Source: Botryllus schlosseri (lineage: Eukaryota). Taken from it: a stretch of DNA of 64,000 bases. Shown here in pieces: positions 9,217 to 45,893 of this stretch. A program made the position numbers and the translations under genes. How positions within the stretch are numbered: the first letter of the stretch is position 1; each line of letters starts with the position of its first letter. The notes below the pieces were generated by a model. It saw only the letters and a list, made by a program, of their open reading frames with translations, made no database searches and had not been told where the DNA came from. Location of the stretch: assembly GCA_051294905.1 (NCBI GenBank), contig CM119372.1, positions 34,660,001-34,724,000 on the forward strand, given 5' to 3'.

Positions 9217-10799
9217 GTAGGTGCACTTAGTGCAGGGTTGCCTTATATCCGGAATTTCCCGGACATGTCCGGAATTTCACCGTTAAAACTGCGTCCAGGA
9301 GGAAATTCTAAAATAAGCCAAAATGTCCGGAATTTTGAATGCTTGAAATATGATCAATTTTATGTCGTATATTAACATAAACGATATATTATATTGGGCA
9401 GATTTATGCCACTTGAAAATTCTCTTCGCGCTATGCGAGATTAAGCGTCACAATCATTGATTTGAAAATGCGTACCACCGCTCTCGCAATACATGCAATA
9501 AAAAATAAATATAAATAACCATCATTTACTAAAATAAATCTAATTGTAATCGCAATTGTAGGAGAACGGTATATTCCTAAAGTCGGTAAAGCCGTTTAGA
9601 TGCTTTAATCTGGGGTTCGCGAAGATGTTGTTCGTATTCAGCTTCCGAAATAGGCAGTGAGTAAGTCTGGGAAAAGGTGCTGACCGATTTACAGTAATCA
9701 GCTTATCAAATTCTGAGCTGGGCCACAAAACATTTTTAAATTAGAAATGGAGTCGCGACCATGAAAGTTTGAATACCACCGCTAACTATGATCATGTAGG
9801 TGAAGAGAGGATCACATTTTATAGTCATATATGGAAGAACCAGTGTTGGGATCAAGTCACTACTTTCGAGTCACGAGTCATTTCGAGTCATGGCACATTT
9901 TGACTTGAGTCAAGTCAAGTCAATCGATTTTCAAATATTACTCGAGTCAAGTCAAGTCACTTGATTTTTGGAGGTGACTCGAGTCAAGTCGAGTCAGGTC
10001 GAGTCAAGTCGAGTCAAGTCGAGTCAAGTCGAGTCAAGTCGAATCAAGTCGAGTCAAGTCGAGTAACGTCGAGTCAAGTCAAGTCAAGTCACGAGTCAAG
10101 TCAAAATTCAAGTCAAGTTGACTTTTCGAAGTACGAGGCATGATTACGTCATTGCATTTTGCTAGCTGTCTGAAATACAGATGGAGTGGTCATTGATTTT
10201 GAACCGATGAACGAATATAGAGTTAAATATACACACAAAAAGGCGCTGTATCGCTCACATATAAGTGGAACTGCTAAACTACGTAAATAATTGCATATCC
10301 TCAGTCATAGTTACCAGCCAAAATAGAGAATAGAGAAACGAATTGATAAGATGCCATACATTACCCATTTACAAATTGATATGATACAATTCGAGCCTGC
10401 GCCCATGGTTGAGGACTCTATAATCTATATTTGATTTCAATTTCAATAAAACAAGAGGTTTGGTGAAGGTAAGAGCAGAGAACAGTAGTATACATTTTGC
10501 TCTAAAATTACTTTACTATACTATAAGTTTACGACAACGTAAGCTGTGAACTTCGGTCAATTCGTTTGCGGTCAATTTATTTGTGAGAGAACAATGGAGC
10601 CTCAGTAAAACGCACGATCATTAAATGATTGGTCGCTCTCACGGTTACACCAACGGTTCGCGAACAATCCGATCATATGCAAGAAACAGTCGCTTTTATC
10701 GACACCGATTACTTTATGACTTGAAATAGACTCGTGAATTTTGTTCCGAGTCACGAGTCAATGCACATTTCTGATACGCCAGTAGTTAGTATGATCGCT

Positions 10800-11095
10800 C
10801 GTGATGTGGCAGGGGCTCTTATGGGCGGGGTGGTGAGGTGCCTGAAAACCGGGGGTGGTGAGGTGACCCTTATCTCTTATGGCGGGGGTGGTGAGGTGCC
10901 ATGTGTTCTTATGGGTGCGGTCGTGATTCGCCTTTTCGGGTATAGGCCGCGGTCGTGATTCGCCGTGAAAACTCGTGGTCGTGACTCGCCTTTTTTGCTA
11001 TAGGCGGTGGCGGTGATTCGCCTGTTATGTATTCTTACGGGTTCTGCGGTGATTTACCATGTGTTCTTATGGGTGCGGTCGTGATTCGCACTTTC
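10800..11095 (+). repeat. GC-rich subterminal repeats of element 1 (mirrored at ~23825-24120)
   Basis: Reiterated GGGGTGGTGAGGTG(CC) and GGTCGTGATTCGCC / TCTTATGGG motifs. Confidence 0.85.
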
Positions 11096-14000
11096 AGACA
11101 TCTCTCGCATGGTGTTGAATATGTACGAGTCACCAACAATAACCGCACAAACGGAAACGTGGCTTGTTGTGAGGATTAAGCAGTGCGTGCGACCTATATT
11201 TCGAATGACCTGCGCGCTGAATTGTTTCCGTGAAGTCGTGTGCTACTATCGATTATTACACTAGACCATTCAGTGCGAAATAGTTTGCTAAATCTAGGAA
11301 TCAGTCGCATGGTGTTACTTTAGTAATTAGTTTACCACAGAGCCGGCGTAGCCGGTGATTCGAATACCGACAATAACCGCGTTCACAAACCAACACTTCA
11401 AAAATGTGTGAAATATTTGTAAAACCCTGCGATCGCTGACAAGATAATGTCTCGAACATAACCATCTTTAGCGACTTGGTGTTACAGACATGCCGATCGC
11501 TCACAAGGTAATATTTCCGCAATAAGTTTGTCACAGAGCCGGCGCAGACGGTGATTCGTAAACCAACAATTTGACACTTTCTGGTGGTCGCTATATGTTT
11601 GACACTTCGGAACGCGGTTGACTTTAGTTGTATGATAAGAATCATGCGAAAATGCAAGTAACGTGTCAATTTGTCAACTTGAAATGAAACTTACTACACA
11701 GCTCAAGTTGATTCGTATCTGAATGTGTTAATTCGGTACAATTCTAATTATTTCGAGAAATATTTTCGTGATCTTTTGATTCGACTGTAACCTAAATATT
11801 GCTGACGCCGACTTTCAGCCACATTGAATTATTCGCACATTCCACACCGCTGTTTTCACACCTATAGAATGAATACCAACTATAACTCTACAAGAATCAA
11901 GAATCACAAGTATGCGCATTATACAGTTATTGTCTTTATCAACATGAAATCAAACTCTTAACAAAAACACGCGACTAATCATTTGTCAACTCTAACATTA
12001 TCAAAAAAATTCCAGTATTGTTGATTGAAAATCCTCGAGTCTTTATTTTTAAGAATGTTATAGTACGGTGTCGGAATCCATTCGCGGATGTACTAAAGGT
12101 AAATTCAGATAATCCAGAATGAAATATTTTGACTTTGACATAGTGTGAATTGAAATAGGATTGACAAACATGACTAGCAACTTCCCCACAGTCCCGTTTC
12201 GATATTATACACACATTGATTTGAAACAAGTAATGTAACATTACAACTCTATTCACAGTTTTCCGTTTGTCAAATAGAGTTTCAGTAAATAATTTCACTA
12301 TGCTATCGCGATATTTTAATGTGTTACTACACACAATCAAGTCAATCAATGAAATCGCACCTGTTGTAAATATTTCACACTTGACAACCGCTTGCACATA
12401 ACACGATCGAGTTGCAATGCGATGAGTTGAATCGGAATATTTCAACCTACTTTGTCAAATCGCGATTTGAAGTAGGATCGCCAGACAGACTGGGTAAACT
12501 TTCACTCCAATGCGTTTCAGATTAATTTATTCACACGATCACCATCTCGCTGTCTTCACACTTACACAATCGCGTACTGTTTCCACTCGCAACTTCGGTA
12601 CGATATTTCAACTTGTCACAATAACTGATTATTCACATGTTGATTTGAAACAAAAGAAACCTTGAACAAGTTATCTGGGTATTTTTTGTCGCAATTGAGT
12701 TAATGGAAATAGTATTACACCTCGAAATTTTAACATCTTACCATACTCAAAAGAGTCAATCATGAAAACCTTGTCAAGTAAATCCGTAAACCTTGTCAAC
12801 TAAATCCGTTTGTAACTTACCAGACCAACTAGACAGTACCCGTACAGAAAGAAGACAAGATTACGCGAGTACATACAATCGCTACAAACTAAAATCCATA
12901 ACAAGTTCGGTTGTAGTCATATACCACCAAATCATCTTTGCTCAACTGTAAAAGTCGTTACTACGCTGTAAGATAAAGTAATTACTACTCGGTAAATTTT
13001 ATAAACCAAAGTAAATACTACTCGGTGTGTGGTTTGAGATTAACATATTACATTTGAGTATACGAAATTTGAATGTCCGGACACGTAGTTGAGAATTCTT
13101 ACGATCAAACGCGGGTGTTATATTGAAAATTTTCACGAATTGACACATTGATTTTGACATATGAGATTTTGTAATAGTCGATCATGACTTGATTATTAAA
13201 TTATGACATTATTAGACCAGGGTTGTGTTGAAGGTTATTACGATACCAACAAACTTTTCAGAAACATTGTTATTAGCATATCGATTTGTGAAACTAGATT
13301 AACATGTCTGAAATGTTTTGATTGGGAAGATTAAGCCGTGTTCATAAAAACCACGCAGCGTATTGTGGATATCAGGAAATATTTTACAAATGTAATTGTC
13401 TCCACTAACCAAGACTAAAGATGAAACACCAATTTCCTTTGTTGAACAATAACCGGTACAATACTTTATCATCGTAATCTGCGGTGAGAATTGAAACACT
13501 TTCGCACATTATCCGGTGTCAAGATAGCACACTAGGTGAATTGACATACCGCCGCTTGATTAATGCTTAATCCGTTCGCACCATTTCACATACTTTGATC
13601 ATTACAAAAGTAAATTGGAATATGCTTGCTAGATGCATTCAGTTAGAAATGTCTGGTACACAACAATCGTAATATCAAGGAAGTACTTGCTACACTGTAA
13701 TTCACTTAACGTGTTTTGCATTGTTGTTCATTTGTAGTATTGATTGTTTTTGAACCTCCAAATAATAATTCCCGACATGAAACCAAACCGCTGAAAGTCG
13801 TTACCATCACAACGAAACAATTTGTACGATGTTTGCCAAATGTATCCTATAGTTAGGTGTACTAGAATCACTGGTCCAACACATACACCGACAATGCAAT
13901 CGAAATTTTCCCCATTGTCATCCGTCAAAGTAAAGGTCGTCACAATACTCAACCCATAAAAGATCTTACTTGTATGTGATTGAATCGCAGGTAATTAACC

Positions 14001-15764
14001 CACTAAATCAAACCATAAGGAAATTTCACTCACTCATCGGATATGAAACAGCGTCACTTAATCGGCGTAGATCGTTTTACTAAATGCAAATCATACCTGA
14101 CCAACAGAAAACAATTTTCACTCACCTTGTAATGAAACCAAGTGGTGGGCCTTCGTTCAATATTTTGTCTGTGTCAAATACTTTGTAATAAACACAATGG
14201 AGTGGTTGAGCTTTACATCATCAAGCTGTCATTAATAAATCAAGATTTCGGTAAACTTGTAAATGTATCGTTTAACTAACCGAGTTGTATGCACAGTTTG
14301 ATATTTTTGCCATTTAGTGATTGCTGAACATACCACTTCGAAATACTGCGTTAATCTCAATTCCCTTTGTCCTGATAATCGAAGTACTTTTGTTTTGAAT
14401 TCATAACAACCGACTATGACATGATAAATTAGAAGATTTAGAAGATTGGTTGCATATCACTAAAAATAATATACCACACATATTATTACTGTTACTCCAT
14501 TCATCGGTATTTTTTCCGTTGTCGATTTTCAAACGAGTAAAATTTATTACTTGAGTTGCTCTGCTTACTATATTTAAATGTAAACTCACCCGTCTTTCAA
14601 CAACAAACAATGTTAAAAAAGTATGCAATCAAACACAACAAGTTTTACGATACTAATTATTATCCCACATAACCCATTTCTTACCGAAGACATATGAAAT
14701 ATATTCATGTTACACGAAAATATTCGCTCATGCTACAAACCTGTACAATGATTGGTGGTGCTTTCAAACTGTTTCGATACCTCAAGAACTTTATTGTCTG
14801 AATGGTTGTTCATGTATCGTAATAATCAAGTAGTTCAACACAGAACTAGTATTAACAGAAACACCAGCGTTGTTTACACAAAAGTTTGTATGTGTACAGT
14901 ATGCGAATACCGTGTGTAAGTCCAGCACAATTGTGGTATCCATACGAGTTTAGTTAACACAATTTACGACACCGAGGTCGCCTCATCTTTCGTAAGACAA
15001 CAAACCAAGGCTTCAGGATATGTCCATGTCATAACAATAAATCAGCTACTCCAACAACAGAGTACATATGTTTTCTAGTTACGGTGCTTACATCTTACAC
15101 ACAAATCGACCTACTTTGCTAACGAAAAGCGCTGAGTCATCACAACAATACAACTAAAACATACTATCATACAAATTGGTCGTTATAGTTTGCCCACCAA
15201 CGATACATCGTACAAGTAGCAAGTCTCGAGAATCCAGTTATTCAAAAAACGTGAAAGTGTTTCTACACCAAGTCGGTATGTTGACGAAAGCATATATTGT
15301 AATATCATGATCGATTTACATTCGTTGGTCACAAAATGTCACTACTCTAAATAATTATTTTTCACTCAAAGCCTACTTGTCATCATTCGTTTCATCAAGC
15401 ACGAGTTCAAGAAACCTGCTACGACATGAATTGTTAATTTTATGTTGTGTAAATAGGTAATAATTAATTTTAGTAACACTATATCAACATCATCGAGTTG
15501 TGCGAATAGATTTACATGTGGTCTTGTGGTTTTAATCGAAGTATACAGCACGGTCTAATGTAGAGTCATCTCTATTGTACAACAACTCGGTAATCGAAAT
15601 GCATTAAAATTTTAACAACGATATTGGTTCGTCGCACCAAAAATATGTTTACTATCACGATACTCTACACAGGCCGTGTAAATCCTTTTCACACTCGTAA
15701 TAGTATACCAACAGCTACCGGCGACAACGTTTAACAATACCAACGACACTAAACATACGATACC

Positions 15765-16270
15765 TACCCAAGTAAAATTACCATTTTCACCTGGAGGTCG
15801 GTCGTAACCCGAGTAGAAATACCATTATCCTTTGGAGATTTATCGTTTACCCAGTGTAACAAACCCCTTTTCCTTTGGTAATTTATTTTTCTCTGGGTAA
15901 CAAACCTTTTTCAGTTGGAAATATATTTTTTCTCTGGGTAACAAACCTTTTTCACTTGGAAATATATTTTTTCTCTGGGTAACAAACCTTTTTCACTTGG
16001 AAATATATTTTTTCCCCCGGTAACAAACCTTTTTCCCTGAGCAACAAACCATTTTCACTTGGAAATATATTTTTCCCTGGGTAACAAACCTTTTTCGCTT
16101 GGAAATATATTTTTTCCTTGAGCAACAAACCATTTTCACTTGGCGGGTCGTCGTTTACCTGACTAAAAATATCATTTTCCTTTGGAGATCTGGCGTTTAC
16201 CCAGTGTAACAATACATTTTCTCTTGGTCATCTAGCTTTTCCTAGAGTAACAAAACCATTTTCATTTTGA
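15765..16270 (+). repeat. ~41-bp tandem array in the left arm of element 1
   Basis: Unit GGTAACAAACCTTTTTCACTTGGAAATATATTTTTTCTCTG, roughly 11-12 copies, degenerate at the edges. Confidence 0.9.
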
Positions 16271-17533
16271 AATCTGACAAACACACCTGACAATTTGGTA
16301 TTTGTTGTATTGACGATAGTTTGAAATAGATTACAACGAACAGTGACGGAAATATACACGGACTACCGGTTTCAGAGTATACCCCCTTCAGTCGTATCAC
16401 ATCAATATCATCGGTTACCCACATACAATATCCTCTTGTACACCGAAATGTATGTTTTGGAAAATTGGACAATAGACTTCGATAGTTCTGTGATGTCCGG
16501 GTTCGTGCTTTGGATTTTCCAGAGTCAAAATGTCTGAATAAAACACCTCCTCGACGATGGTTGGTATGTGGATAACGGGGTTCGGAGGACGGTTGGATTT
16601 ATGTCACCCATCGCGATAACAATTCCAGGTCGAATTTTTCCCCGCATGTTTACTATATTGTGTCTTTATTGGTCAATGTATGTCTCGACATTCAGTTTGA
16701 AATCGGAAACCCTGATAAAGTATGTAACCGGATCCGGATATCAACTCTGAATCGATAAACCAATGAACAATATTCAAAGTAAACATGTTACATTCCACGA
16801 AAAAATACCATCCGGACATACGTCGCGCTTGTTTGCCCACAACATATTACGCGTAAATGGAGGTGTGTGACATTGCATGCAATGTGTTGGTATACAAACA
16901 TCGATCCACAGACATTATCATAGCCGGTAGTTTTGATGTAGATCGAATGTCATCACACCCGATAACAATGTCATACCAATAAGCCACATTGCAATGACTC
17001 TGAGTCCGCGCTATTACATCGATATTTCGACACCGTTCACTGATTTATTCGATGGTGTTATCGCAAGATAGTCATGACCCTATCTGTAGACGGACCACCC
17101 AGATCAATTGGATACATCGGTCAATATCCATCGTGTTGTCGACACCGAAGTTTTCTGCTGAGACTACAGCGTTTGATCTAGGTGAACTATCGAAGTACGG
17201 TGCTCGAAATGATTGCGATCAGTCTTTCAGTCACGATCAATGGATGTCGCTACTGCCACATAACGACTCCGGATAAATATCGTGCAAATGTCGGACTGAT
17301 ATTGTGATCAAATAAGGTATGTTTCTGTGGAATGAAGACTGCGATCGTACACCACAATAGAACACTACCTCGTGATTTCACACGCAATCATAAAACACAC
17401 TTTCGTAAGGGTCTAGCTCGTCCGGTGACATTTCGAAACGGTCGTCACCACAAGAGATCGGGGTTGGTCTCGTCATATCGGAGCATTTTGAAACGGTGTC
17501 GTCACAAGGCTATTGACGTCGATTCAGTTGGTC

Positions 17534-17809
17534 ATGTCAATCCGTTTTACAAAGTACCGTTTTTCAAGTCCCTGCACCATAGTGTTACGACACAGACAAG
17601 ATGCGACGGTGGAAATAATAAAACACGGAAGGCACACTTTGGTGTTATTTGACATGGATTTTACACCAGACGAACCTCACATTCGAGCGACGAATTGGAA
17701 TGACCTTTGTATTATTGACGTCGAAGGGAAAGAAATGTATCGATTTATCGGATTTGTACATATCCAACAAAAATCTGGGTATATGATTGTGCATGGTTCG
17801 CATATTTGA
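17534..17809 (+). CDS. Candidate small orphan ORF (91 aa) in the unique spacer of element 1
   Basis: ATG-initiated MSIRFTKYRFSSPCTIVLRHRQDATVEIIKHGRHTLVLFDMDFTPDEPHIRATNWNDLCIIDVEGKEMYRFIGFVHIQQKSGYMIVHGSHI. Composition is protein-like but I recognise no domain. Confidence 0.25.
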   Translation: MSIRFTKYRFSSPCTIVLRHRQDATVEIIKHGRHTLVLFDMDFTPDEPHIRATNWNDLCIIDVEGKEMYRFIGFVHIQQKSGYMIVHGSHI

Positions 17810-18649
17810 CTGTGAACGCTCTATTGGTATATGTTGTACAGTTTACTTTCACCGTCGTGCGAATAACCATGTCAAGTTCCATGTTTGTGTGTCTATATGT
17901 CACGCTTCAGATTGACTCAGAGTCATTGCAATGTGGCTTATTGGTATGACATTGTTATCGGGTGTGATGACATTCGATCTACATCAAAACTACCGGCTAT
18001 GATAATGTCTGTGGATCGATGTTTGTATACCAACACATTGCATGCAATGTCACACACCTCCATTTACGCGTAATATGTTGTGGGCAAACAAGCGCGACGT
18101 ATGTCCGGATAGTATTTTTTCGTGGAATGTAACATGTTTACTTTGAATATTGTTCATTGGTTTATCGATTCAGAGTTGATATCCGGATCCGGTTACATAC
18201 TTTATCAGGGTTTCCGATTTCAAACTGAATGTCGAGACATACATTGACCAATAAAGACACAATATAGTAAACATGCGGGGGAAAACTCGACCTGGAATTG
18301 TTATCGCGATGGGTGACATAAATCCAACCGTCCTCCGAACCCCGTTATCCACATACCAACCATCGTCGAGGAGGTGTTTTATTCAGACATTTTGACTCTG
18401 GAAAATCCAAAGCACGAACCCGGACATCACAGAACTATCGAAGTCTATTGTCCAATTTTCCAAAACATGCATTTCGGTGTACAAGAGGATATTGTATGTG
18501 GGTAACCGATGATATTGATGTGATACGACTGAAGGGGGTATACTCTGAAACCGGTAGTCCGTGTATATTTCCGTCACTGTTCGTTGTAATCTATTTCAAA
18601 CTATCGTCAATACAACAAATACCAAATTGTCAGGTGTGTTTGTCAGATT

Positions 18650-19155
18650 TCAAAATGAAAATGGTTTTGTTACTCTAGGAAAAGCTAGATGACCAAGAGA
18701 AAATGTATTGTTACACTGGGTAAACGCCAGATCTCCAAAGGAAAATGATATTTTTAGTCAGGTAAACGACGACCCGCCAAGTGAAAATGGTTTGTTGCTC
18801 AAGGAAAAAATATATTTCCAAGCGAAAAAGGTTTGTTACCCAGGGAAAAATATATTTCCAAGTGAAAATGGTTTGTTGCTCAGGGAAAAAGGTTTGTTAC
18901 CCGGGGAAAAAATATATTTCCAAGTGAAAAAGGTTTGTTACCCAGAGTAAAAATATATTTCCAAGTGAAAAAGGTTTGTTACCCAGAGAAAAAATATATT
19001 TCCAACTGAAAAAGGTTTGTTACCCAGAGAAAAATAAATTACCAAAGGAAAAGGGGTTTGTTACACTGGGTAAACGATAAATCTCCAAAGGATAATGGTA
19101 TTTCTACTCGGGTTACGACCGACCTCCAGGTGAAAATGGTAATTTTACTTGGGTA
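18650..19155 (-). repeat. Mirror copy of the ~41-bp tandem array in the right arm of element 1
   Basis: ATATTTCCAAGTGAAAAAGGTTTGTTACCCAGAGAAAA units. Confidence 0.9.
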
Positions 19156-22100
19156 GGTATCGTATGTTTAGTGTCGTTGGTATTGTTAAACGTTGTCGCC
19201 GGTAGCTGTTGGTATACTATTACGAGTGTGAAAAGGATTTACACGGCCTGTGTAGAGTATCGTGATAGTAAACATATTTTTGGTGCGACGAACCAATATC
19301 GTTGTTAAAATTTTAATGCATTTCGATTACCGAGTTGTTGTACAATAGAGATGACTCTACATTAGACCGTGCTGTATACTTCGATTAAAACCACAAGACC
19401 ACATGTAAATCTATTCGCACAACTCGATGATGTTGATATAGTGTTACTAAAATTAATTATTACCTATTTACACAACATAAAATTAACAATTCATGTCGTA
19501 GCAGGTTTCTTGAACTCGTGCTTGATGAAACGAATGATGACAAGTAGGCTTTGAGTGAAAAATAATTATTTAGAGTAGTGACATTTTGTGACCAACGAAT
19601 GTAAATCGATCATGATATTACAATATATGCTTTCGTCAACATACCGACTTGGTGTAGAAACACTTTCAGGTTTTTTGAATAACTGGATTCTCGAGACTTG
19701 CTACTTGTACGATGTATCGTTGGTGGGCAAACTATAACGACCAATTTGTATGATAGTATGTTTTAGTTGTATTGTTGTGATGACTCACCGCTTTTCGTTA
19801 GCAAAGTAGGTCGATTTGTGTGTAAGATGTAAGCACCGTAACTAGAAAACATATGTACTCTGTTGTTGGAGTAGCTGATTTATTGTTATGACATGGACAT
19901 ATCCTGAAGCCTTGGTTTGTTGTCTTACGAAAGATGAGGCGACCTCGGTGTCGTAAATTGTGTTAACTAAACTCGTATGAATACCACAATTGTGCTGGAC
20001 TTACACACGGTATTCGCATACTGTACACATACAAACTTTTGTGTAAACAACGCTGGTGTTTCTGTTAATACTAGTTCTGTGTTGAACTACTTGATTATTA
20101 CGATACATGAACAACCATTCAGACAATAAAGTTCTTGAGGTATCGAAACAGTTTGAAAGCACCACCAATCATTGTACAGGTTTGTAGCATGAGCGAATAT
20201 TTTCGTGTAACATGAATATATTTCATATGTCTTCGGTAAGAAATGGGTTATGTGGGATAATAATTAGTATCGTAAAACTTGTTGTGTTTGATTGCATACT
20301 TTTTTAACATTGTTTGTTGTTGAAAGACGGGTGAGTTTACATTTAAATATAGTAAGCAGAGCAACTCAAGTAATAAATTTTACTCGTTTGAAAATCGACA
20401 ACGGAAAAAATACCGATGAATGGAGTAACAGTAATAATATGTGTGGTATATTATTTTTAGTGATATGCAACCAATCTTCTAAATCTTCTAATTTATCATG
20501 TCATAGTCGGTTGTTATGAATTCAAAACAAAAGTACTTCGATTATCAGGACAAAGGGAATTGAGATTAACGCAGTATTTCGAAGTGGTATGTTCAGCAAT
20601 CACTAAATGGCAAAAATATCAAACTGTGCATACAACTCGGTTAGTTAAACGATACATTTACAAGTTTACCGAAATCTTGATTTATTAATGACAGCTTGAT
20701 GATGTAAAGCTCAACCACTCCATTGTGTTTATTACAAAGTATTTGACACAGACAAAATATTGAACGAAGGCCCACCACTTGGTTTCATTACAAGGTGAGT
20801 GAAAATTGTTTTCTGTTGGTCAGGTATGATTTGCATTTAGTAAAACGATCTACGCCGATTAAGTGACGCTGTTTCATATCCGATGAGTGAGTGAAATTTC
20901 CTTATGGTTTGATTTAGTGGGTTAATTACCTGCGATTCAATCACATACAAGTAAGATCTTTTATGGGTTGAGTATTGTGACGACCTTTACTTTGACGGAT
21001 GACAATGGGGAAAATTTCGATTGCATTGTCGGTGTATGTGTTGGACCAGTGATTCTAGTACACCTAACTATAGGATACATTTGGCAAACATCGTACAAAT
21101 TGTTTCGTTGTGATGGTAACGACTTTCAGCGGTTTGGTTTCATGTCGGGAATTATTATTTGGAGGTTCAAAAACAATCAATACTACAAATGAACAACAAT
21201 GCAAAACACGTTAAGTGAATTACAGTGTAGCAAGTACTTCCTTGATATTACGATTGTTGTGTACCAGACATTTCTAACTGAATGCATCTAGCAAGCATAT
21301 TCCAATTTACTTTTGTAATGATCAAAGTATGTGAAATGGTGCGAACGGATTAAGCATTAATCAAGCGGCGGTATGTCAATTCACCTAGTGTGCTATCTTG
21401 ACACCGGATAATGTGCGAAAGTGTTTCAATTCTCACCGCAGATTACGATGATAAAGTATTGTACCGGTTATTGTTCAACAAAGGAAATTGGTGTTTCATC
21501 TTTAGTCTTGGTTAGTGGAGACAATTACATTTGTAAAATATTTCCTGATATCCACAATACGCTGCGTGGTTTTTATGAACACGGCTTAATCTTCCCAATC
21601 AAAACATTTCAGACATGTTAATCTAGTTTCACAAATCGATATGCTAATAACAATGTTTCTGAAAAGTTTGTTGGTATCGTAATAACCTTCAACACAACCC
21701 TGGTCTAATAATGTCATAATTTAATAATCAAGTCATGATCGACTATTACAAAATCTCATATGTCAAAATCAATGTGTCAATTCGTGAAAATTTTCAATAT
21801 AACACCCGCGTTTGATCGTAAGAATTCTCAACTACGTGTCCGGACATTCAAATTTCGTATACTCAAATGTAATATGTTAATCTCAAACCACACACCGAGT
21901 AGTATTTACTTTGGTTTATAAAATTTACCGAGTAGTAATTACTTTATCTTACAGCGTAGTAACGACTTTTACAGTTGAGCAAAGATGATTTGGTGGTATA
22001 TGACTACAACCGAACTTGTTATGGATTTTAGTTTGTAGCGATTGTATGTACTCGCGTAATCTTGTCTTCTTTCTGTACGGGTACTGTCTAGTTGGTCTGG

Positions 22101-22678
22101 TAAGTTACAAACGGATTTAGTTGACAAGGTTTACGGATTTACTTGACAAGGTTTTCATGATTGACTCTTTTGAGTATGGTAAGATGTTAAAATTTCGAGG
22201 TGTAATACTATTTCCATTAACTCAATTGCGACAAAAAATACCCAGATAACTTGTTCAAGGTTTCTTTTGTTTCAAATCAACATGTGAATAATCAGTTATT
22301 GTGACAAGTTGAAATATCGTACCGAAGTTGCGAGTGGAAACAGTACGCGATTGTGTAAGTGTGAAGACAGCGAGATGGTGATCGTGTGAATAAATTAATC
22401 TGAAACGCATTGGAGTGAAAGTTTACCCAGTCTGTCTGGCGATCCTACTTCAAATCGCGATTTGACAAAGTAGGTTGAAATATTCCGATTCAACTCATCG
22501 CATTGCAACTCGATCGTGTTATGTGCAAGCGGTTGTCAAGTGTGAAATATTTACAACAGGTGCGATTTCATTGATTGACTTGATTGTGTGTAGTAACACA
22601 TTAAAATATCGCGATAGCATAGTGAAATTATTTACTGAAACTCTATTTGACAAACGGAAAACTGTGAATAGAGTTGTA

Positions 22679-25457: not shown

Positions 25458-25517
25458 ATATCACAACTGCCCTAGGGGATGGAGCCGTTGCAAAAGACGG
25501 TAATTTCCACAATGCAG
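25458..25517 (+). CDS. Candidate small exon
   Basis: Acceptor-like tgttttacag| and donor-like CAG|GTAATG. Joined in phase 2 to the 9032-9216 exon it reads K-YHNCPRGWSRCKRR-stop. In phase 1 it is open (ITTALGDGAVAKDGNFHNA). Confidence 0.25.
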
Positions 25518-33024: not shown

Positions 33025-33212
33025 TACTTGTTTTAACCGGTGCTAATTCCTTAGAATGTAATAGTTTTGCAGGACTGATGCAGGGAAGAAAAAATATCTC
33101 GGTTGACATCCTACAAACACTATTTCAACAGTTATAGCGTATTCCGCAAATATATTTGAAGCTATTATCTGCTATCAACCTTCACATTACTATGCGGGGT
33201 AAAGCGATAGGG

Positions 33213-34605: not shown

Positions 34606-34981
34606 CAATATGGATTCAGACGCATCCTAAATGTAGCTCCATTCATGGTCTGTTGACAACTAGCATACATATTCATTTACACCAGACCGCTCATCATTTG
34701 CAGGATTCATGTGCAGCTGACTTATACCAAAACCCACTTTTGTGCTAGGCTTTTATAGGACACTTATAACCGTCCGATCGTTGATCTAACTAACCGTCTG
34801 AAGTGGATGACTAGGCAGATTTGAGGGATATATGGCAACGAATGCATAGTACAATAAAACGGCAAACGGTTCAGGCCAGACATGTCTTACTCAAATTTAG
34901 TACACTCCACTGTATGTATTGACTTGCCTTGGCACACGAGAGAACCGGATCCACCAGGTTTCACAGCGGCGTGGACACATT

Positions 34982-37900
34982 AGTAGTATATATGATCGGT
35001 CGTGGTGTGCGCTTTTTTGCATGGGGTAGTATAGGCGGGGTGGTGAGCGGCTGGGAAAGCGGGGGTGGTGAGCGGCTCTTATTTCTTATGGCGGGGGTGG
35101 TGAGCGGCTATTGCGTCTTATGGCGGGGGTGGTGAGCGGCTCTTATTTCTTATGGCTGGGGTCGTGAGCGGCTGGAAAACCGGGGGTTGTGAGCGGCTTT
35201 TATGTCTTATGGCGGGGGTCGTGAGCGGCTCTTATTTCTTATGGGCGGGGTCGCAAGCGGCTGGGAAACCGGGGGTGGCAAGCGGCTTTTATGTCTTATG
35301 GCGGGGGGTGGCGAGCGGCTATTGTGTCTTGTGGTCGCACTGGCGAGCGGCTCTTATTTCTTATGGGCGCGGCGGCGAGCGGCTATTGCGTTTTATGGCG
35401 GGGGTGACAAGCGGCTATTACGTCTTATGGCATCTCTCGACCGGTGACCCTTTTCGGTATAGGGATCGCTCAACCGGTGTCTCGATCTTATGGCGGGGTC
35501 GCAAGCGGCTCTTATTTCTTATGGCCATTGTGTCTTATGGAGCCTCTCAACCGGTAACCCTTTTCGGTATAGGGATCGTTCGACCGGTGCCGCGAAAACT
35601 CGTCTTGAACCGGTGACCCTTTTCGGTATATGCATCTCTCGACCGGTGTTGAATATGTATCAAGTAAATAGTCATGTGAATGAATCTTTGTTAATGTGTA
35701 TATCGTGAAAACTCGTGGTCGTGACTCGCCTTTTTTACTATAGGTGGTGACGGTGATTCGCCCACCGTGTATTCTTACGGGATCTGTGGTGATTCGCCAT
35801 GTGTTCTTATGGGTGCGCTCGCATTTCGTACTTTCAGGTATAGGTATCTCTCGCATATCGTACTTTCGGGTATGGACATCCCTTAACAGGAAATTCACTA
35901 ATCCGCAGTGCATTGTGCGATTTTGAAAACCAGATCTTGGCGGTTGTATTTTGACCTGTGTGACCCACTAAATACGTCCGTTTTGGAAATTCGGAGCGCG
36001 CACTATCATATCGATTATTCCACTAATCCAGTCGGTGCTATTACATTCAGCAGTATTCGGTATTCAGCAGCGACACGAAAAGCGACCAACAAATAACCGC
36101 GCTCGTAAATTAACACTTCAAAAAGTGTAAAATAGATTGCAAATCCAGCGATCGCTGACAAGATAATGTCTCGGGCATAACCATTTTTAGTGACTTGGTG
36201 TTACAAACATACCGATCGCTCACGCGGTGAAATTTTAGTAATCAGTTTGTCACAGAACTTGATTTCGCTGGTAAGATTTAATAAATACCGACTAACAGAA
36301 CCATCAGTGTGGGTAACTTGAATAGCAACAAATTATCACTTATTTCCGCCCTAACCCTAATCCTTTGTGAGATTACCACATACTCAAATAGATGCGAAAT
36401 AATTGTAAAATCATACAATCTTTTTAGGAATATTACTTGACTTGACCAACTTTCGGCTCTGTTTTCGATTTCCACACAGTCGCTATAAGTTTCCACGCTT
36501 CTAGAATAGGATTGACTTTAGACACGTCATAAGAATCATGGTAATATTCAATCAATGTGTCAATTTACCAACTCGAAATCTCACTCGCGCTACAAGTGAA
36601 GCTGAATTGTTTCCGAATATGATAATTTACCACCGCTCAGCGCCAAACTGACTCTGTATAACAATATTACGCATGCGCGGTATTTCAGAATGGTATAATG
36701 TCATTATCAGCAAATATTTCACAAACTTAATCGTTTACACGAATCAAAGCTAAAGTTGAAACGACAATATCAAGGTTTGAAACCTTACAACTCGATCAGT
36801 GATTTTTTATTCAACTGTAAAATAAGTTAATATTCTGTAAGACACAACAATTATTGCTCGGGTAATGTGACATTGAGATTACCAAATTGTATATTGAGTA
36901 TACGAGATTTGAATGTTTGACTAGTGATAGACTGAAAAATATCTCGCAAGAGAATCCATGTGTTATAATGCAGGCTATCGTGATACAAACAAATTCAATA
37001 CGGTATACCTATTAACCAATCGGCCCCCAACCCGAGATTCGAGTGTTCGATCAGTGCTCGATAAAAATTATTTTCATGTATACCAACTCTTGCGTTGTGG
37101 TGAAGGGTGTTACGATATGAGCAAAGTTTTAATAAACACCATTATCAGCACCCTGATTGAGAAAAAACTTGATTCGTATGTATGAAAAGTGTTTGATTGG
37201 GAATTTATCCATTTCTTACAATCCCGCCACTGTAATGAGGACTGGTATTATATGATTATTAAATAATATTTCACAAACTCAAGCCACTGTTTTTGAGGAA
37301 TGGTATTATATGATTACTAAATAATATTTCACAAACTCAACCCTAATCGTAAGACTTGAGAGAAATCACGTATTCGCTTGATGATAACACGCATGCGACA
37401 AAAAACATCACCGCGATTTTGTAAACTGATCATACTAATCAGGGTATTTACCATCACGCTTCTAGAATAGGATTGACTACTGAAGGTAAATTCAGATAAT
37501 CCAAAATGAAATATCTCAACTTTGACATAGTCTGAATTGAAATAGATTGACAAGCATACCTACCAACTTTAACCCACTCACATTTCGAAATTATGCACAC
37601 ATTGATTTGAAACAAGTAATGTAACATTACAACTCTATTCCCGATCCAGCTTTCCGTTTGTCAATGAGACATTTTAACATCTTACCATACTCAAAAGAAT
37701 TATTCAAAACATTAACAAGTGTTAAAAATCTAGTTTCCACTTACTTGATTATATCAGTACAACTAGCAAACTTGAATTAATTCATCTGGTTGTATTCATA
37801 TGACCGATAATTTTTATCCCACTGTAAAGGTTGTTATACTATTTTACAAGACAAAGTAATTATTCCTCGATATATTTTGGAAGACAAAAGTAATTTCTAC

Positions 37901-39521
37901 TCGGTGTAGGTGGCTTGAGATTAACATACTATGTTTGAGTGTACGAGATTTGCAAGTCTGATCAACGTAGTTGGGAATTCGTTTCTTACAATCGAACGCA
38001 GGCGTTATATTAAGAATTATCATGATGTAAACATAAGGATTGACACATTGATTTGACATATGAGGTTTTGTAACGGTCTATCATGACTTAATTATTAAAT
38101 TATTCACGATAATTAGACCCGGTGTTGTGGTAAAGATTATTATGACAGCAACAAACTTTTCACTACCACGGTTATTACCATATTGAGTTATAAAACTATT
38201 CGTGTATGAAATGTTCTTGATTGGTAAATTATTCCACCTTGGTACAAATCACTCTGCGTATCGCGGATGTCAGAAAATATTTTACATATGTAATTGTTTC
38301 CAGTTACCGAGACTAAAGATGAAACAACAATTTCGTTTACTGATTAACAACCGGCGCAATACTTCATTGTCGGAATCTGCGACTAAGAACTGAAACACAT
38401 ACCCGCATTACCCTGGTGTCAAGATGTGTGAATTGACATACCGCCGCTTGATTAATGCTTAATCCGTTCGCACCATTTCCCACACACTTTGATCATTACA
38501 AAAACAAATTGGAATATGTTTTCTAGACACCTCCTATTCAACTAGGCTTGAGTAATACAGAAAACTCTTAACATTAATAAAATCGAAACATATGCTTCAC
38601 TGAATACTAAAAAATGTGGTTGCATTGATGTTCAATGTTTTATAGTAGTGATCATAAATTATCATTTGAATCTTATAAAATTGTAATCATAAAACCACAC
38701 CACAGGAGGTCATCAAAAGCATATTGCAGGATGTTTGCTCTATGCATCCTAGTTTGGTAAACTGGAATTATTTGTAGAACGCACACCATCAAAGAAAAAC
38801 ACGCAACCACTAACACGATTCCTAGTTGAGATTGAACTCCTAGTCATTTTCTACGCGTGCACAACTATAGGGTCGTTCTTCTGGATACAAGACCTAAAAT
38901 TTTTGAGTTGTCAAAACGACACACATATTTGAAAATATCACTTACTTGGTTAAAGCTAATGCATCGACGGTAACAACCGACACGGATCATTACTATTTAT
39001 TTCATAATCATTTCAACAAAATTACACACACTGTACATTGTTGCTTTTTGCGTGACACGAGAATAAATCAGATCACAACGAACTTAATGTGTATTTTACT
39101 CACTCGTCGCATTATGAATATTGACCAACATCGTTTCAACGTCGTGCATCGTTTTGCCGAATACGAAATATGTTAGTGTAGCAAATGTTTTAGCGTAACA
39201 GAAAACTATTTTCACTTTCTTGACTTTTGAAAACAATACACGCACATTTTGTTTGTGTCAACTATAGTTACTTGTAAGATACGACTGATAATCCCCGCGA
39301 CTCATACAAAAGTATGAAAGATATTTACATCACGCAAAGTACTCGACCTTACACGATATTTTTGGTACTACGAAACTCAAGAATGATTGCCTACGCTTTC
39401 AAAGTAAAGAATGACGAAAAGTGCTGAGTCATCATATGATTGCCGGCACAACAAAACGACTAGTAGATGGAGCCGTAAAAAAAATGTTCCTAACCCTTAG
39501 CACACCAGTGACAAATCGTGC
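34982..39521 (+). repeat. Left inverted arm of element 2 (4540 bp)
   Basis: Reverse complement of 41569-45893. Mirror ORF sums are 81086-81090. About 211 bp extra in the subterminal repeats. Confidence 0.95.
35030..35650 (+). repeat. GC-rich subterminal repeat array of element 2
   Basis: ~30-bp units TCTTATGGCGGGG(G)T(C/G)GTGAGCGGCT..., followed by ACCGGTGACCCTTTTCGGTATAGGGATCG units. Confidence 0.9.
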
Positions 39522-40199
39522 AATGGATATGTTTTGTCGAGTTGTTGTTGAGCGTCAAGTCTTCGTGTTGAACCGTACATTTGAACAGCGCAACCACGAT
39601 CCAATTGTAACCACGAATCTATTTTCATTTTGACACAAACTGTCGCGTACAGAAAAATAAATTTTCTTTCCTCAACACATACTTGTATCCAATCACTTTC
39701 GTCAAACACGCAACTCAATAAAATTGTTTACTTTCTACAACATCAAAACCCCGATTTAGTTGTACATATTGTTGAGAAATATTTTTATTAATCAAAACCA
39801 TCGATTTCTGTTCATGGTGTTAGTGTGTGCATGTCATACCTGTGGGCCCCTCCGTATTAAAATGGACACGACACGACTGAATGTAAGGGGATAGAAGTCT
39901 ATCGCATCGATTTACATGTGGTCTTCGCTACGGTTTCAAAAAACGAATCATCTATTTTGCATTGGTCGAGACCGAGCGAGTCAGTTACATGTATTCACGA
40001 TAATGATTTTGCTTGTCATATGCGAATGATAGGGTTGCTACTCCGACAAATCAAATCAACATACAACAATCTTCTGACGATCATAATAGCAATTTCATTT
40101 TCTGCCCCTTCGTAACTGTATATGCACGAAAAGTATATTGTACAACTCGGCAACTACGTTTAACAAGACCAATCACACTACCATCGTTGAACACAAGAT

Positions 40200-40895
40200 A
40201 CCTACCCAAGTCAAAATATCATACTGGTTTGGACAACTGATGTTTACCTGTGTAAAATTATCATTTTCACTTGGAGGTCAACCGTTACCTGACTAAAATA
40301 CCATTGTCCTTTGGCGATTTATCGTTTACCCCGTGTAACAAACCTTTTTCCCTTGGAAATCTATTTTTTCTCTGGGTAACAAACCTTTTTCACTTGGAAA
40401 TCTATTTTTTTCTCTGGGTAACAAACCTTTTTCACTTGGAAATATATTTTTTCTCTGGGTAACAAACCTTTTTCACTTGGAAATATATTTTTTCCCTGAA
40501 CAACAAACCATTTTCACTTGGAAATAAACTTTTACCTAGAGTAACTAACCATTTTCTTTTGGAAATATATTTCCCCCTAGGTAACAAACCCTTTTCGTTT
40601 GGAAAACTATCATTTACCTGAGTACCAATACCGTTTTCACTTGGAAATCTATCTTTTCCCTGGGTAACAATACCATTTTCGTTTGGAAATCAATCGTTAC
40701 CTAGAGTAACAACCCATTTTGGTCTGGAAATATATTTTTCCCCTGAATAATAAACCATTTTCGTTTGGAAATATATTTTTTCTCTGAGTAACAACACACT
40801 TTTCGTTTGGAAATATATTTTTTCTCTGAGTAACAACATAATTTTCGTTTGGAGATGCGATGTTTACCCAAGTAAAAATACCATTTGAGTTTTGA
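40200..40895 (+). repeat. ~41-bp tandem array in the spacer of element 2 (same unit as in the element 1 arms)
   Basis: GGTAACAAACCTTTTTCACTTGGAAATATATTTTTTCTCTG-type units, roughly 16 copies. Confidence 0.9.
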
Positions 40896-41568
40896 AATCT
40901 GACAACCACACGCATCAATTTGGTATTTGCTGTATTGGTGAAAGTTTGAAATAGATTACAACGAACAGTGACGAAAATATACACGACAATCGGTTTCAGA
41001 GTATACTCACGTCGGTAGCAACACATCTATATCATCGGTTAACCACATGAAATAACAATATAATCTTGTATATCGAAATGTATGCTTTGGAAAATGACGA
41101 ATATTGTGTGTGTGTGTATGTGTCCGGGCTCGTACTTTAGTTTTTGCACAGAGTCTATACATCTGAATAAAACACCACCTCGACTTTGGTACCTGGTTCG
41201 TACATGGATAACACTACTTGTGATTTTTATCACACGTTTACTATATTGTGTCACTCTTTATTGGTCAATACATACCCCACCGTTCAGTCTGAAATCGAAA
41301 ACCCGAGAAAGTATTAACCGGATCCGGATATCAACTCTGAATCAAAAAACCAATGAAACATGTTACACCCTGTGTTTCCATGAAAAAAACAAGACATTAC
41401 ACATCAAGTAAACTTCACGATTGTTCACAAGTATTCGCGTAAACGAGGTGTGTGACATTACATACATCATGGATAACATCATGGCCGACATTACAAGCAT
41501 CATGGATGACAAATTCATGTTCTCAAGTCTCATACATGAACCGACTCTGTACGTTCAATGTGGGGGTA

Positions 41569-44500
41569 GCACGATTTGTCACTGGTGTGCTAAGGGTTAG
41601 GAACATTTTTATTACGGCTCCAGCTACTAGTCGTTTTGTTGTGCCGGCAATCATATGATGACTCAGCACTTTTCGTCATTCTTTACTTTGAAAGCGTAGG
41701 CAATCATTCTTGAGTTTCGCAGTACCAAAAATATCGTGTAAGGTCGAGTACTTTGCGTGATGTAAATATCTTTCATACTTTTGTATGAGTCGCGGGGATT
41801 ATCAGTCGTATCTTACAAGTAACTATAGTTGACACAAACAAAATGTGCGTGTATTGTTTTCAAAAGTCAAGAAAGTGAAAATAGTTTTCTGTTACGCTAA
41901 AACATTTGCTACACTAACATATTTCGTATTCGGCAAAACGATGCACGACGTTGAAACGATGTTGGTCAATATCCATAATGCGACGAGTGAGTAAAATACA
42001 CATTAAGTTCGTTGTGATCTGATTTATTCTCGTGTCACGCAAAAAGCAACAATGTACAGTGTGTGTAATTTTGTTGAAATGATTATGAAATAAATAGTAA
42101 TGATCCGTGTCGGTTGTTACCGTCGATGCATTAGCTTTAACCAAGTAAGTGATATTTTCAAATATGTGTGTCGTTTTGACAACTCAAAAATTTTAGGTCT
42201 TGTATCCAGAAAAACGACCCTATAGTTGTGCACGCGTAGAAAATGACTAGGATTTCAATCTCAACTAGGAATCGTGTTAGTGGTTGCGTGTTTTTCTTTG
42301 ATGGTGTGCGTTCTACAAATAATTCCAGTTTACCAAACTAGGATGCATAGAGCAAACATCCTGCAATATGCTTTTGATGACCTCCTGTGGTGTGGTTTTA
42401 TGATTACAATTTTATAAGATTCAAATGATAATTTATGATCACTACTATAAAACATTGAACATCAATGCAACCACATTTTTTAGTATTCAGTGAAGCATAT
42501 GTTTCGATTTTATTAATGTTAGGAGTTTTCTGTATTACTCAAGCCTAGTTGAATAGGAGGTGTCTAGAAAACATATTCCAATTTGTTTTTGTAATGATCA
42601 AAGTGTGTGGGAAATGGTGCGAACGGATTAAGCATTAATCAAGCGGCGGTATGTCAATTCACACATCTTGACACCAGGGTAATGCGGGTATGTGTTTCAG
42701 TTCTTAGTCGCAGATTCCGACAATGAAGTATTGCGCCGGTTGTTAATCAGTAAACGAAATTGTTGTTTCATCTTTAGTCTCGGTAACTGGAAACAATTAC
42801 ATTTGTAAAATATTTTCTGACATCCGCGATACGCAGAGTGATTTGTACCAAGGTGGAATAATTTACCAATCAAGAACATTTCATACACGAATAGTTTTAT
42901 AACTCAATATGGTAATAACCGTGGTAGTGAAAAGTTGCTGTCATAATAATCTTTACCACAACACCGGGTCTAATTATCGTGAATAATTTAATAATTAAGT
43001 CATGATAGACCGTTACAAAACCTCATATGTCAAATCAATGTGTCAATCCTTATGTTTACATCATGATAATTCTTAATATAACGCCTGCGTTCGATTGTAA
43101 GAAACGAATTCCCAACTACGTTGATCAGACTTGCAAATCTCGTACACTCAAACATAGTATGTTAATCTCAAGCCACCTACACCGAGTAGAAATTACTTTT
43201 GTCTTCCAAAATATATCGAGGAATAATTACTTTGTCTTGTAAAATAGTATAACAACCTTTACAGTGGGATAAAAATTATCGGTCATATGAATACAACCAG
43301 ATGAATTAATTCAAGTTTGCTAGTTGTACTGATATAATCAAGTAAGTGGAAACTAGATTTTTAACACTTGTTAATGTTGTGAATAATTCTTTTGAGTATG
43401 GTAAGATGTTAAAATGTCTCTTTGACAAACGGAAAGCTGGATCGGGAATAGAGTTGTAATGTTACATTACTTGTTTCAAATCAATGTGTGCATAATTTCG
43501 AAATGTGAGTGGGTTAAAGTTGGTAGGTATGCTTGTCAATCTATTTCAATTCAGACTATGTCAAAGTTGAGATATTTCATTTTGGATTATCTGAATTTAC
43601 CTTCAGTAGTCAATCCTATTCTAGAAGCGTGATGGTAAATACCCTGATTAGTATGATCAGTTTACAAAATCGCGGTGATGTTTTTTGTCGCATGCGTGTT
43701 ATCATCAAGCGAATACGTGATTTCTCTCAAGTCTTACGATTAGGGTTGAGTTTGTGAAATATTATTTAGTAATCATATAATACCATTCCTCAAAAACAGT
43801 GGCTTGAGTTTGTGAAATATTATTTAATAATCATATAATACCAGTCCTCATTACAGTGGCGGGATTGTGAGAAATGGATAAATTCCCAATCAAACACTTT
43901 TCATACATACGAATCAAGTTTTTTCTCAATCAGGGTGCTGATAATGGTGTTTATTAAAACTTTGCTCATATCGTAACACCCTTCACCACAACGCAAGAGT
44001 TGGTATACATGAAAATAATTTTTATCGAGCACTGATCGAACACTCGAATCTCGGGTTGGGGGCCGATTGGTTAATAGGTATACCGTATTGAATTTGTTTG
44101 TATCACGATAGCCTGCATTATATCACATGGATTCTCTTGCGAGATATTTTTCAGTCTATCACTAGTCAAACATTCAAATCTCGTATACTCAATATACAAT
44201 TTGGTTATCTCAATGTCACATTACCCGAGCAATAATTGTTGTGTCTTACAGAATATTAACTTATTTTACAGTTGAAAAAAAAATCACTGATCGAGTTGTA
44301 AGGTTTCAAACCTTGATATTGTCGTTTCAACTTTAGCTTTGATTCGTGTAAACGATTAAGTTTGTGAAATATTTGCTGATAATGACATTATACCATTCTG
44401 AAATACCGCGCATGCGTAATATTGTTATACAGAGTCAGTTTGGCGCTGAGCGGTGGTAAATTATCATATTCGGAAACAATTCAGCTTCACTTGTAGCGCG

Positions 44501-45893
44501 AGTGAGATTTCGAGTTGGTAAATTGACACATTGATTGAATATTACCATGATTCTTATGACGTGTCTAAAGTCAATCCTATTCTAGAAGCGTGGAAACTTA
44601 TAGCGACTGTGTGGAAATCGAAAACAGAGCCGAAAGTTGGTCAAGTCAAGTAATATTCCTAAAAAGATTGTATGATTTTACAATTATTTCGCATCTATTT
44701 GAGTATGTGGTAATCTCACAAAGGATTAGGGTTAGGGCGGAAATAAGTGATAATTTGTTGCTATTCAAGTTACCCACACTGATGGTTCTGTTAGTCGGTA
44801 TTTATTAAATCTTACCAGCGAAATCAAGTTCTGTGACAAACTGATTACTAAAATTTCACCGCGTGAGCGATCGGTATGTTTGTAACACCAAGTCACTAAA
44901 AATGGTTATGCCCGAGACATTATCTTGTCAGCGATCGCTGGATTTGCAATCTATTTTACACTTTTTGAAGTGTTAATTTACGAGCGCGGTTATTTGTTGG
45001 TCGCTTTTCGTGTCGCTGCTGAATACCGAATACTGCTGAATGTAATAGCACCGACTGGATTAGTGGAATAATCGATATGATAGTGCGCGCTCCGAATTTC
45101 CAAAACGGACGTATTTAGTGGGTCACACAGGTCAAAATACAACCGCCAACATCTGGTTTTCAAAATCGCACAATGCACTGCGGATTAGTGAATTTCCTGT
45201 TAAGCGATGTCCATACCCGAAAGTACGATATGCGAGAGATACCTATACCTGAAAGTACGACATGCGAGCGCACCCATAAGAACACATGGCGAATCACCAC
45301 AGATCCCGTAAGAATACACGGTGGGCGAATCACCGTCACCACCTATAGTAAAAAAGGCGAGTCACGACCACGAGTTTTCACGATATACACATTAACAAAG
45401 ATTCATTCACATGACTATTTACTTGATACATATTCAACACCGGTCGAGAGATTCATATACCGAAAAGGGTCACCGGTTCAAGACGAGTTTTCGCGGCACC
45501 GGTCGAACGATCCCTATACCGAAAAGGGTTACCGGTTGAGAGGCTCCATAAGACACAATGGCCATAAGAAATAAGAGCCGCTTGCGACCCCGCCACAAGA
45601 TCGAGGCACCGGTTGAGCGATCCCTATACCGAACAGGGTCACCGGTCGAGAGATGCCATAAGACGTAATAGCCGCTTGTCATCCCCACCATAAGACGCAA
45701 TAGCCGCTTGCCACCGCCGCCATAAGAAATAAGAGCCGCTCACCACCCCCGCCATAAGACGCAATAGCCGCTCACCACCCCCGCCATAAGAAATAAGAGC
45801 CGCTCACAACCCCCGCTTTCCCAGCCGCTCACCACCCCGCCTATACTACCCCATGCAAAAAAGCGCACACCACGACCGATCATATATACTACT
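41569..45893 (-). repeat. Right inverted arm of element 2 (4325 bp)
   Basis: Begins gcacgatttgtcactggtgtgc, the reverse complement of the sequence ending at 39521. Confidence 0.95.

Follow-up and report, generated by a model that had tools for sequence, protein, structure and literature searches.

Giant palindromic elements with Polinton/Maverick-type ends and a conserved loop reading frame in the Botryllus schlosseri genome

Two fold-back elements at the locus

The window analysed here, a 64,000-nucleotide (nt) stretch of Botryllus schlosseri DNA (assembly GCA_051294905.1, contig CM119372.1, positions 34,660,001 to 34,724,000 of the forward strand), contains two long fold-back insertions, E1 (10781-24139) and E2 (34982-45893). 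Both are probably insertions of a high-copy, non-autonomous, palindromic derivative of Polinton/Maverick elements residing in the same genome. An initial annotation had described two diverged elements, each largely one giant inverted repeat, with AGTAGT...ACTACT ends and different 6-bp duplications of the target site (TSDs), both perfect; repeat finding, arm alignment and direct reading of the boundaries bear out this description for both.

Repeat finding in the window resolves E1 into a single inverted repeat with arms of 6,226 nt each and a 907-nt spacer, and a base-by-base comparison of the arms gives 11 mismatches and no insertions or deletions (99.82% identity). The left arm (10781-17006, plus orientation) begins with AGTAGTTAGTATGATCGCTCGTG, and the right arm (17914-24139, minus orientation) is its inverted repeat and ends in ...ACTACT; perfect 6-bp TACGCC duplications border the element at 10775-10780 and 24140-24145. 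The outermost part of the left arm (10781-11287, plus orientation; mirrored at 23633-24139) is homologous to Polinton ends and comprises a terminus motif, an array of subterminal repeats of about 30 bp (GGCGGGGTGGTGAG-type), and 268 nt (11020-11287, plus orientation) that sequence comparison places at 89% identity to a Polinton terminal inverted repeat (TIR). Further inward lies a 41-bp tandem repeat array (15856-16276, plus orientation; mirrored at 18644-19064), and the arms enclose the spacer, or loop (17007-17913, plus orientation), with a 91-codon open reading frame (ORF) running from ATG to TGA at 17534-17809 on the plus strand. The sequence that hosts E1 is another dispersed repeat, made of GACTCGAGTCAAGTCA-like units and seen at 9901-10118 and 24146-24240 of the window. 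Reads at 10770 and 10780 represent uninterrupted paralogues of this host repeat with a single TACGCC each, and these serve as paralogous empty sites for E1.

In the second element the inverted repeat consists of three collinear blocks that pair 34982-39521 with 41569-45893 at 97-99% identity, with arms of about 4.5 kb and AGTAGT...ACTACT ends between perfect CACATT duplications (34976-34981 and 45894-45899). Its left arm (plus orientation, about 4,540 nt) carries a 32-bp subterminal repeat array at 35037-35431, and its right arm (minus orientation, about 4,325 nt) has fewer of these units, such that the copy number of the 32-bp repeat is unequal between the two arms. Outside the subterminal repeats the arms are 98.8% identical over 4,282 aligned nt, with the differences evenly spread at about 0.5% of positions; the arms of E2 have diverged more from each other than those of E1. 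The single-copy centre of E2 (39522-41568, 2,047 nt, plus orientation) is homologous to the inner part of an E1 arm, contains a 41-bp repeat array (40288-40898) and lacks the loop ORF. E1 and E2 share patches at 70-87% identity, including the termini, several arm segments and the 41-bp array, which is present in both arms of E1 but only once, centrally, in E2. Neither BLASTN nor an ORF comparison of the two elements found a homologue of the E1 loop or its ORF in E2. Because an E1-like palindrome minus its loop and one inner arm segment reproduces the exact layout of E2, E2 is read as a deletion derivative; it looks older, and one deletion event would account for the absence of the loop, the ORF and an inner segment of one arm. 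The earlier view of E2 as a second, independent example of the fold-back design is therefore not upheld, and E2 is instead a degraded relative of an E1-like palindrome.

Apart from the loop frame, the elements show no sign of coding capacity. The longest ORF with a start codon in either element is 156 amino acids (aa), in agreement with the ceiling of about 156 aa given at the outset for such ORFs of E1 and E2, and the longest stop-to-stop frame (170 aa) lies within a tandem repeat. A Pfam scan of 52 of the 97 stop-to-stop frames of at least 50 aa from the two elements (all those of at least 60 aa, plus one of 58 aa) gave no match above threshold, and an Rfam search over window positions 9000-47000 returned no family at gathering score. 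Thirteen ORFs of the Polinton described below were compared by tblastn with E1, E2 and two other full copies without a match, the capsid, protease and packaging-ATPase module included; an rve integrase was likewise absent from these four copies by Pfam frames and tblastn, and the Polinton polymerase, searched with both of its halves by tblastn, was not found in E1 or E2. The two largest E1 frames, of 159 and 129 aa, were considered as relatives of the terminal ORF of the Polinton and showed no likeness to it. Other conserved patches of the arms match in several frames and on both strands, which indicates conservation at the nucleotide level. The label "gene-less" in the initial annotation holds for E2, which has no loop ORF, but not for E1-type copies, in which the 91-codon ORF is conserved with a ratio of non-synonymous to synonymous substitution rates (dN/dS) of about 0.26.

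A dispersed family and its co-resident Polinton

Across the 495.5-Mb genome (219 contigs), the terminal 400 nt of E1 or E2 return many plus/minus matched pairs about 13-15 kb apart. The 23-nt terminus pattern AGTAGT-N6-GATCG-N-TCGTG matches 560 times in forward and 536 times in reverse orientation (1,096 in total), and the reversed pattern, used as a control, matches nowhere in the whole genome on either strand. From 60 terminal loci that were fetched, both ends were available for 17 copies, and all 17 are flanked by a perfect 6-bp TSD, every one different. When E2 is added to these copies, the two middle TSD positions (3-4) read CG in 12 of 18 elements and CA or TG in six, which points to a CG-centred, partly decayed target. 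Of the 100 termini listed for contig C1, 37 pairings of identical 23-mers define 36 elements (one with a double terminus); the remainder comprises three pairs with unequal termini and 20 solo ends. The median length among these 36 same-terminus elements is about 14.0 kb; by hand count 24 of them fall within 12.2-15.5 kb, one after subtraction of a nested copy. In one element on this contig (C1:33469672-33483361) the terminus motif recurs symmetrically at 153 bp inward from either end, representing a duplicated or nested terminus within the TIR.

In addition to E1 and E2, two full fold-backs, one Polinton and 12 further loops were read. The full copies, at C9:18.23 Mb (18.1 kb) and C2:4.00 Mb (15.7 kb), have arms 99.7-100% identical and share the fold-back design of E1 and E2; each carries an insertion of 2.2-2.4 kb in one arm only (at 4618-6827 of one fetched piece and 2982-5399 of the other). 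Copies at C9:6.17 Mb and C6:21.86 Mb are equal in length and 99.8% alike, with different TSDs. The paired ends are thus not due to chance, given 1,096 motif matches against none in the control and 17 perfect TSDs in 17 copies. The expectation that terminal sequences would recover further copies with 6-bp TSDs proved correct, and the near-identical pair at different sites, together with the retention of the loop described below, supports a family that propagates as a unit and not an accident.

Near-perfect palindromes are a known class of assembly artefact, arising for instance as false inverted duplications from long-read chimeras, and the contig data are shattered by the repeat and do not span the arm-loop-arm structure. 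An artefact nonetheless has a vanishingly small probability and is ruled out by the observations: the arms differ by real mismatches, the architecture is conserved in four full copies, about 550 end pairs exist with perfect copy-specific TSDs wherever both ends were read, and sequencing runs from several samples, some of them labelled as a second species, contain the family. In total, 20 sequencing runs from nine studies contain part of the stretch. Three runs under the second species label hold 41-43% of the words sampled from the left half of E1, and contigs of one such run align to that half at 95% identity or above; the match indicates that the family is common to at least two labelled species.

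The annotation had also supposed that a gene-bearing element with the same ends might exist, and one is present at C13:14442690-14457991. This 15,302-bp element is flanked by CCCGTC duplications, and its TIRs extend for about 757 bp, made up of 311 nt at 95.8% and 446 nt at 99.3% identity. Its boundaries read CCCGTC followed by AGTAGTATAGTAGATCGGTCGTG at the left and ...ACTACT followed by CCCGTC at the right, with termini AGTAGTATAGTAGATCGGTCGTG and AGTAGTTATATAGATCGGTCGCA. It encodes a 359-aa rve integrase with a chromodomain, a 217-aa A32-like ATPase, a 1,129-aa frame with a weak match to pPolB (PF03175), and a 432-aa ORF grouped with clusters of double jelly-roll (DJR) capsid proteins (atlas score 0.98). 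Judged by its genes and termini, the C13 element is a Polinton. A genome scan with PF03175 and PF00770 at default thresholds gave no match, with the controls equally silent; when PF03175 was relaxed to E<=10, nine weak matches inside long open frames appeared, the C13 Polinton being the second-best. The best was rejected as a Polinton polymerase since it is a cellular ORF of the DNA polymerase delta type. This intronless, 1,075-aa ORF of the catalytic-subunit type (C5:11747082-11750306) adjoins a long array of 176-bp satellite units with an inverted block (about 2028-7306 of the piece taken from C5:11738501-11758500).

The DNA of the C13 polymerase has 40 scored matches among 162 candidates, at 82-100% identity, three of them at about 100%. 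Segments at C13:14452001, C10:5658320 and C6:16748054 are about 100% identical over 2.1 kb, and two further copies with identical scores lie 21.3 kb apart on C4 (12066453 and 12087780). Another polymerase copy (C1:34877759-34879630) is located inside a 16.5-kb terminus pair (C1:34868426-34884932), and several elements of fold-back length on this contig have exactly the 23-nt terminus of that pair; the Polinton copies are accordingly 15.3 and 16.5 kb long.

The C13 Polinton, E1 and E2 have in common the 23-nt terminus motif and GGGCGGGGT-type subterminal repeats, and element positions 240-507 of E1 are 88.9% identical to the C13 TIR over 268-271 nt. The TSD of the C13 Polinton is CG-centred, as in the fold-back copies. 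The Polinton/Maverick identity of the ends, first proposed from the termini of the window elements, is consequently supported both by the (AGT)2//(ACT)2 ends with a 6-bp TSD and by homology to the C13 termini. From the shared ends and the shared target preference we infer mobilization in trans by a Polinton.

These shared ends also bear on a different origin for the family. Foldback elements typically have long inverted arms composed partly of tandem subrepeats and lack a transposase gene, and E1 and E2 agree with them in these traits as well as in a short loop and high copy number; the family could on that basis be a Foldback-type transposon of another superfamily (P or Mutator-like, MULE), comparable to Drosophila FB or Galileo, with ends that resemble those of Polintons by convergence. 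FB and Galileo have TSDs of 7-9 bp and partner ends of the P or MULE type, whereas all 18 elements examined here have a 6-bp TSD and the arms exceed those of Foldback elements several-fold in length. Their ends moreover have the terminus motif and subterminal repeats of a co-resident Polinton with polymerase and integrase genes, to which they are 89% identical over 268 nt. Convergence is accordingly highly improbable.

In vertebrate Mavericks, 5'-(AGT)2//(ACT)2-3' with a 6-bp TSD is given as the commonest end type, with elements of 12.7-24.6 kb and, in intact Mavericks, TIRs of 46-1,447 bp (mean 402) (Barreat & Katzourakis 2021, PMC8097293). The fold-backs resemble Polintons/Mavericks in their (AGT)2//(ACT)2 ends, 6-bp TSD, inverted termini and end homology to a co-resident element with pPolB, rve, ATPase and DJR-like genes; they differ in lacking the defining genes, in an inverted repeat of 4.5-6.2 kb that makes up almost the whole element, in a copy number of hundreds to about a thousand, and in having a 91-aa loop gene of their own. 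Butterfly Polintons (10.1101/2025.02.07.637071) have gene-bearing TIRs of about 2 kb that duplicate the hexon and adenain genes and are autonomous; the likeness lies in inverted repeats expanded far past the usual few hundred bp, while the fold-back arms are non-coding and three times longer and the element is non-autonomous. Full-text searches of the literature yielded no description of palindromic non-autonomous Polintons and one passing mention of non-autonomous or defective Polintons/Mavericks; Repbase and Dfam lay outside this search, so a library entry is possible.

The loop and its 91-codon frame

The 907-nt loop of E1 is conserved from end to end (positions 1-907) at 93-99% identity in 40 of 40 scored matches among 975 candidates, and the boundaries between arm and loop are identical in all 40. 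This conservation indicates that the fold-back axis is inherited and not remade at each insertion. The finding bears directly on the view that each copy is an independent copy-back (snap-back) defective Polinton genome, integrated once, with the palindrome remade in each round of replication. Snap-back defective genomes are a recognized class (PMC13506859), the arms are nearly identical in every copy, and the fold-back axes of E1 and E2 differ, all of which would suit such an origin. It is largely refuted by the common boundaries and loop of the 40 scored copies; moreover, two copies at different sites have the same length and are 99.8% identical, tblastn detects no remnants of Polinton genes in the arms, and the axis of E2 is explained by one deletion of the loop and an inner arm segment. 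We regard independent copy-back as very unlikely. The copy-back analogy drawn in the initial annotation may nevertheless apply to the origin of the family, although it fails for individual copies. Snap-back and copy-back defective viral genomes, defective adenovirus DNA included, likewise keep one replication end twice, inverted, and depend on a helper; they consist of viral sequence (PMC13506859) and are made anew in each infection, in contrast to the fold-backs, which are heritable, germline-integrated and transposing, with non-viral arms and their own gene.

Alignment of 13 E1-type loops revealed a 114-codon frame that is open in all 13 and an overlapping 105-codon frame that is open in 11; of the two exceptions, one contains a stop and the other a frameshift that fuses both frames. 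The 114-codon frame was rejected as the loop gene because it is broken in the divergent C9-type copy. By contrast, the overlapping frame is kept between the E1-type and C9-type lineages over 91 codons with the same ATG, the same stop and no insertions or deletions, at 69% nucleotide and 62-63% amino acid identity; BLASTN of the loops of these two lineages aligns this ORF and nothing else. Differences between the lineages fall 31/14/39 by codon position, the Nei-Gojobori dN/dS is 0.26 (0.27 for a second deep pair), and only 5% of random-substitution replicates of the ORF are still open. A genome-wide protein search with the C9-type ORF returned 1,201 candidates, of which 150 were scored; every one of the 150 is 90% identical or more, and 148 are free of stops. 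On these substitution patterns the 91-codon ORF is under purifying selection; a 91-aa gene maintained by selection presumably aids the propagation of the element.

Just upstream of the ORF, about 150 nt (window positions 17331-17480 or so) are nearly invariant among the 13 E1-type loops, with a column variability of 0.003-0.015 against 0.03-0.11 elsewhere in the loop. BLASTN gave no alignment of this segment to the C9-type loop; it may be a promoter or a 5' untranslated region.

The ORF was not found in the C13 Polinton. One near-identical protein of the loop ORF is present in the databases. A profile search of 1.84 billion representatives with the loop protein returned one orthologue and two WD40 proteins (E 4e-6 and 5e-6), each matched through 5-6 repeat units, and residues 27-73 are 27-33% identical to single WD40 repeats; the protein thus has a weak likeness to single WD40 repeat units. 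A prediction of a four-copy complex gave no support and weighs neither way, and none of the listed runs that hold the stretch is recorded as RNA.

Arm homogenization, mode of spread and significance

The two arms of each copy evolve in lock-step. In all 17 copies compared over 1.8-2.0 kb, the arms match each other at 99.42-100%; in a sample of 18 copies, identity to the closest other copy is 80-97%, apart from one pair at 99.8%. Since the arms are nearly identical inside lineages that have diverged to 69% in the loop ORF, homogenization is required; it would probably occur by mismatch correction in a snapped-back single strand, by in-situ gene conversion, or by both. Mismatches between arms are patchy, with none at element positions 624-4159 of E1 and none at 2509-4522 of the C9 copy, a pattern that favours conversion tracts.

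The palindrome arms of the human Y chromosome are known to undergo gene conversion, and arm identity might be maintained purely by in-situ conversion, with nothing owed to replication. The long mismatch-free tracts, at different places in E1 and the C9 copy, are in keeping with this (binomial estimates of about 1e-4 and 3e-4), and we give the explanation somewhat less than an even chance. Against it, two copies retain one-arm insertions of 2.2 and 2.4 kb that conversion has left in place, and the differences of about 0.5% in E2 are evenly distributed, from which it follows that conversion is neither fast nor complete; additionally, the divergence between two near-identical copies is close to that between the arms of one copy, which fits a young age. 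A snapped-back single strand would be expected if strand displacement proceeds from protein-primed ends, a presumed step.

To our knowledge, the replication and spread of Polintons have never been shown directly. Under the favoured interpretation of E1 and E2 as palindromic Polinton derivatives, the element would keep the cis-acting Polinton ends alone (the terminal AGTAGT, the array of subterminal repeats and TIR sequence of about 0.5 kb), and the rest would consist of a non-coding arm of roughly 5.7 kb, present twice in inverted orientation. The rve/chromodomain integrase of the co-resident Polinton would insert the element in trans, producing the 6-bp duplication at CG-centred sites, and the protein-primed Polinton polymerase would probably replicate it from the shared AGT-repeat ends, just as adenovirus is replicated by protein priming from short terminal repeats. 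The palindrome would have arisen once or a few times and then been inherited, its most plausible origin being a copy-back event or strand switch in protein-primed replication; the lineages would subsequently drift to 70-85% identity while the arms stay about 99.4-100% identical. Copy lengths clustered just under the length of the helper suggest a size-selective step such as encapsidation.

Several observations weigh against this interpretation. Over the outermost 111 nt, identity between E1 and the C13 Polinton falls to 75%, and the true helper may for this reason belong to another Polinton lineage; the likeness to Polintons is confined to the outer 0.5 kb of the element (weakly up to 1.3 kb), and the PF03175 score of the 1,129-aa polymerase ORF is under the family cut-off. 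Trans-mobilization is inferred only from the shared ends, and the uniform length of the copies could simply reflect young copies of common descent. As for the loop gene, the variant codons within the E1-type subfamily comprise 18 synonymous and 35 non-synonymous changes, which is close to neutral; such a pattern is expected for dead copies and is no support on its own. One of the 13 E1-type copies has an ORF with a stop and one an ORF with a frameshift. The loop protein has no Pfam match (105-aa frame, E<=1), no PDB match and no weighty relative in the atlas, where weak bacterial hypothetical proteins alone were returned, and its AlphaFold model (91 aa, all-beta) is poor, with a predicted confidence (pLDDT) of 51.6. 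RNA support is limited to a few reads: the one raw RNA run, sampled to about 6%, gives a depth of about 2 on the ORF bin and on one strand only.

A bolder proposal, which we consider speculative and rather unlikely, is that the element is a satellite of an animal Polinton virus: a palindrome matched in size to the capsid, with arms acting as stuffer and self-repairing template, replicated, packaged and integrated by the helper, and with its own 91-aa protein biasing the machinery. If true, animals would have an equivalent of phage satellites and of virophage-style hyperparasitism, and the satellite would have reached a copy number roughly ten times that of its helper. A parallel exists with transpovirons, linear TIR plasmids of about 7 kb that parasitize mimiviruses (PMC5499653); they too are reduced members of the Polinton-centred class that have lost the morphogenesis genes and ride on a helper, and they differ in keeping a helicase/inactive-polymerase gene, in being non-palindromic, and in having a giant virus instead of a Polinton as helper.

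Polintons are usually low-copy, with fewer than 10 in Anolis, for example (PMC3014272). Against this usual rarity, a non-autonomous derivative is present here at hundreds to about a thousand copies, and the 548 terminus pairs, at 14 kb each, would make up an estimated 1.5% or so of the genome. The Polinton ends that these copies retain would delimit the cis-acting sequences needed for integration and probably for replication. The lock-step evolution of the arms bears on single-strand or hairpin intermediates, and the copy lengths just under that of the helper bear on encapsidation. For annotators, the loop frame is a caution that giant palindromes described as gene-less may hide short loop genes. 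Selection also maintains a small gene within an element devoid of other coding content, and together these features make claims about the Polinton life cycle testable.

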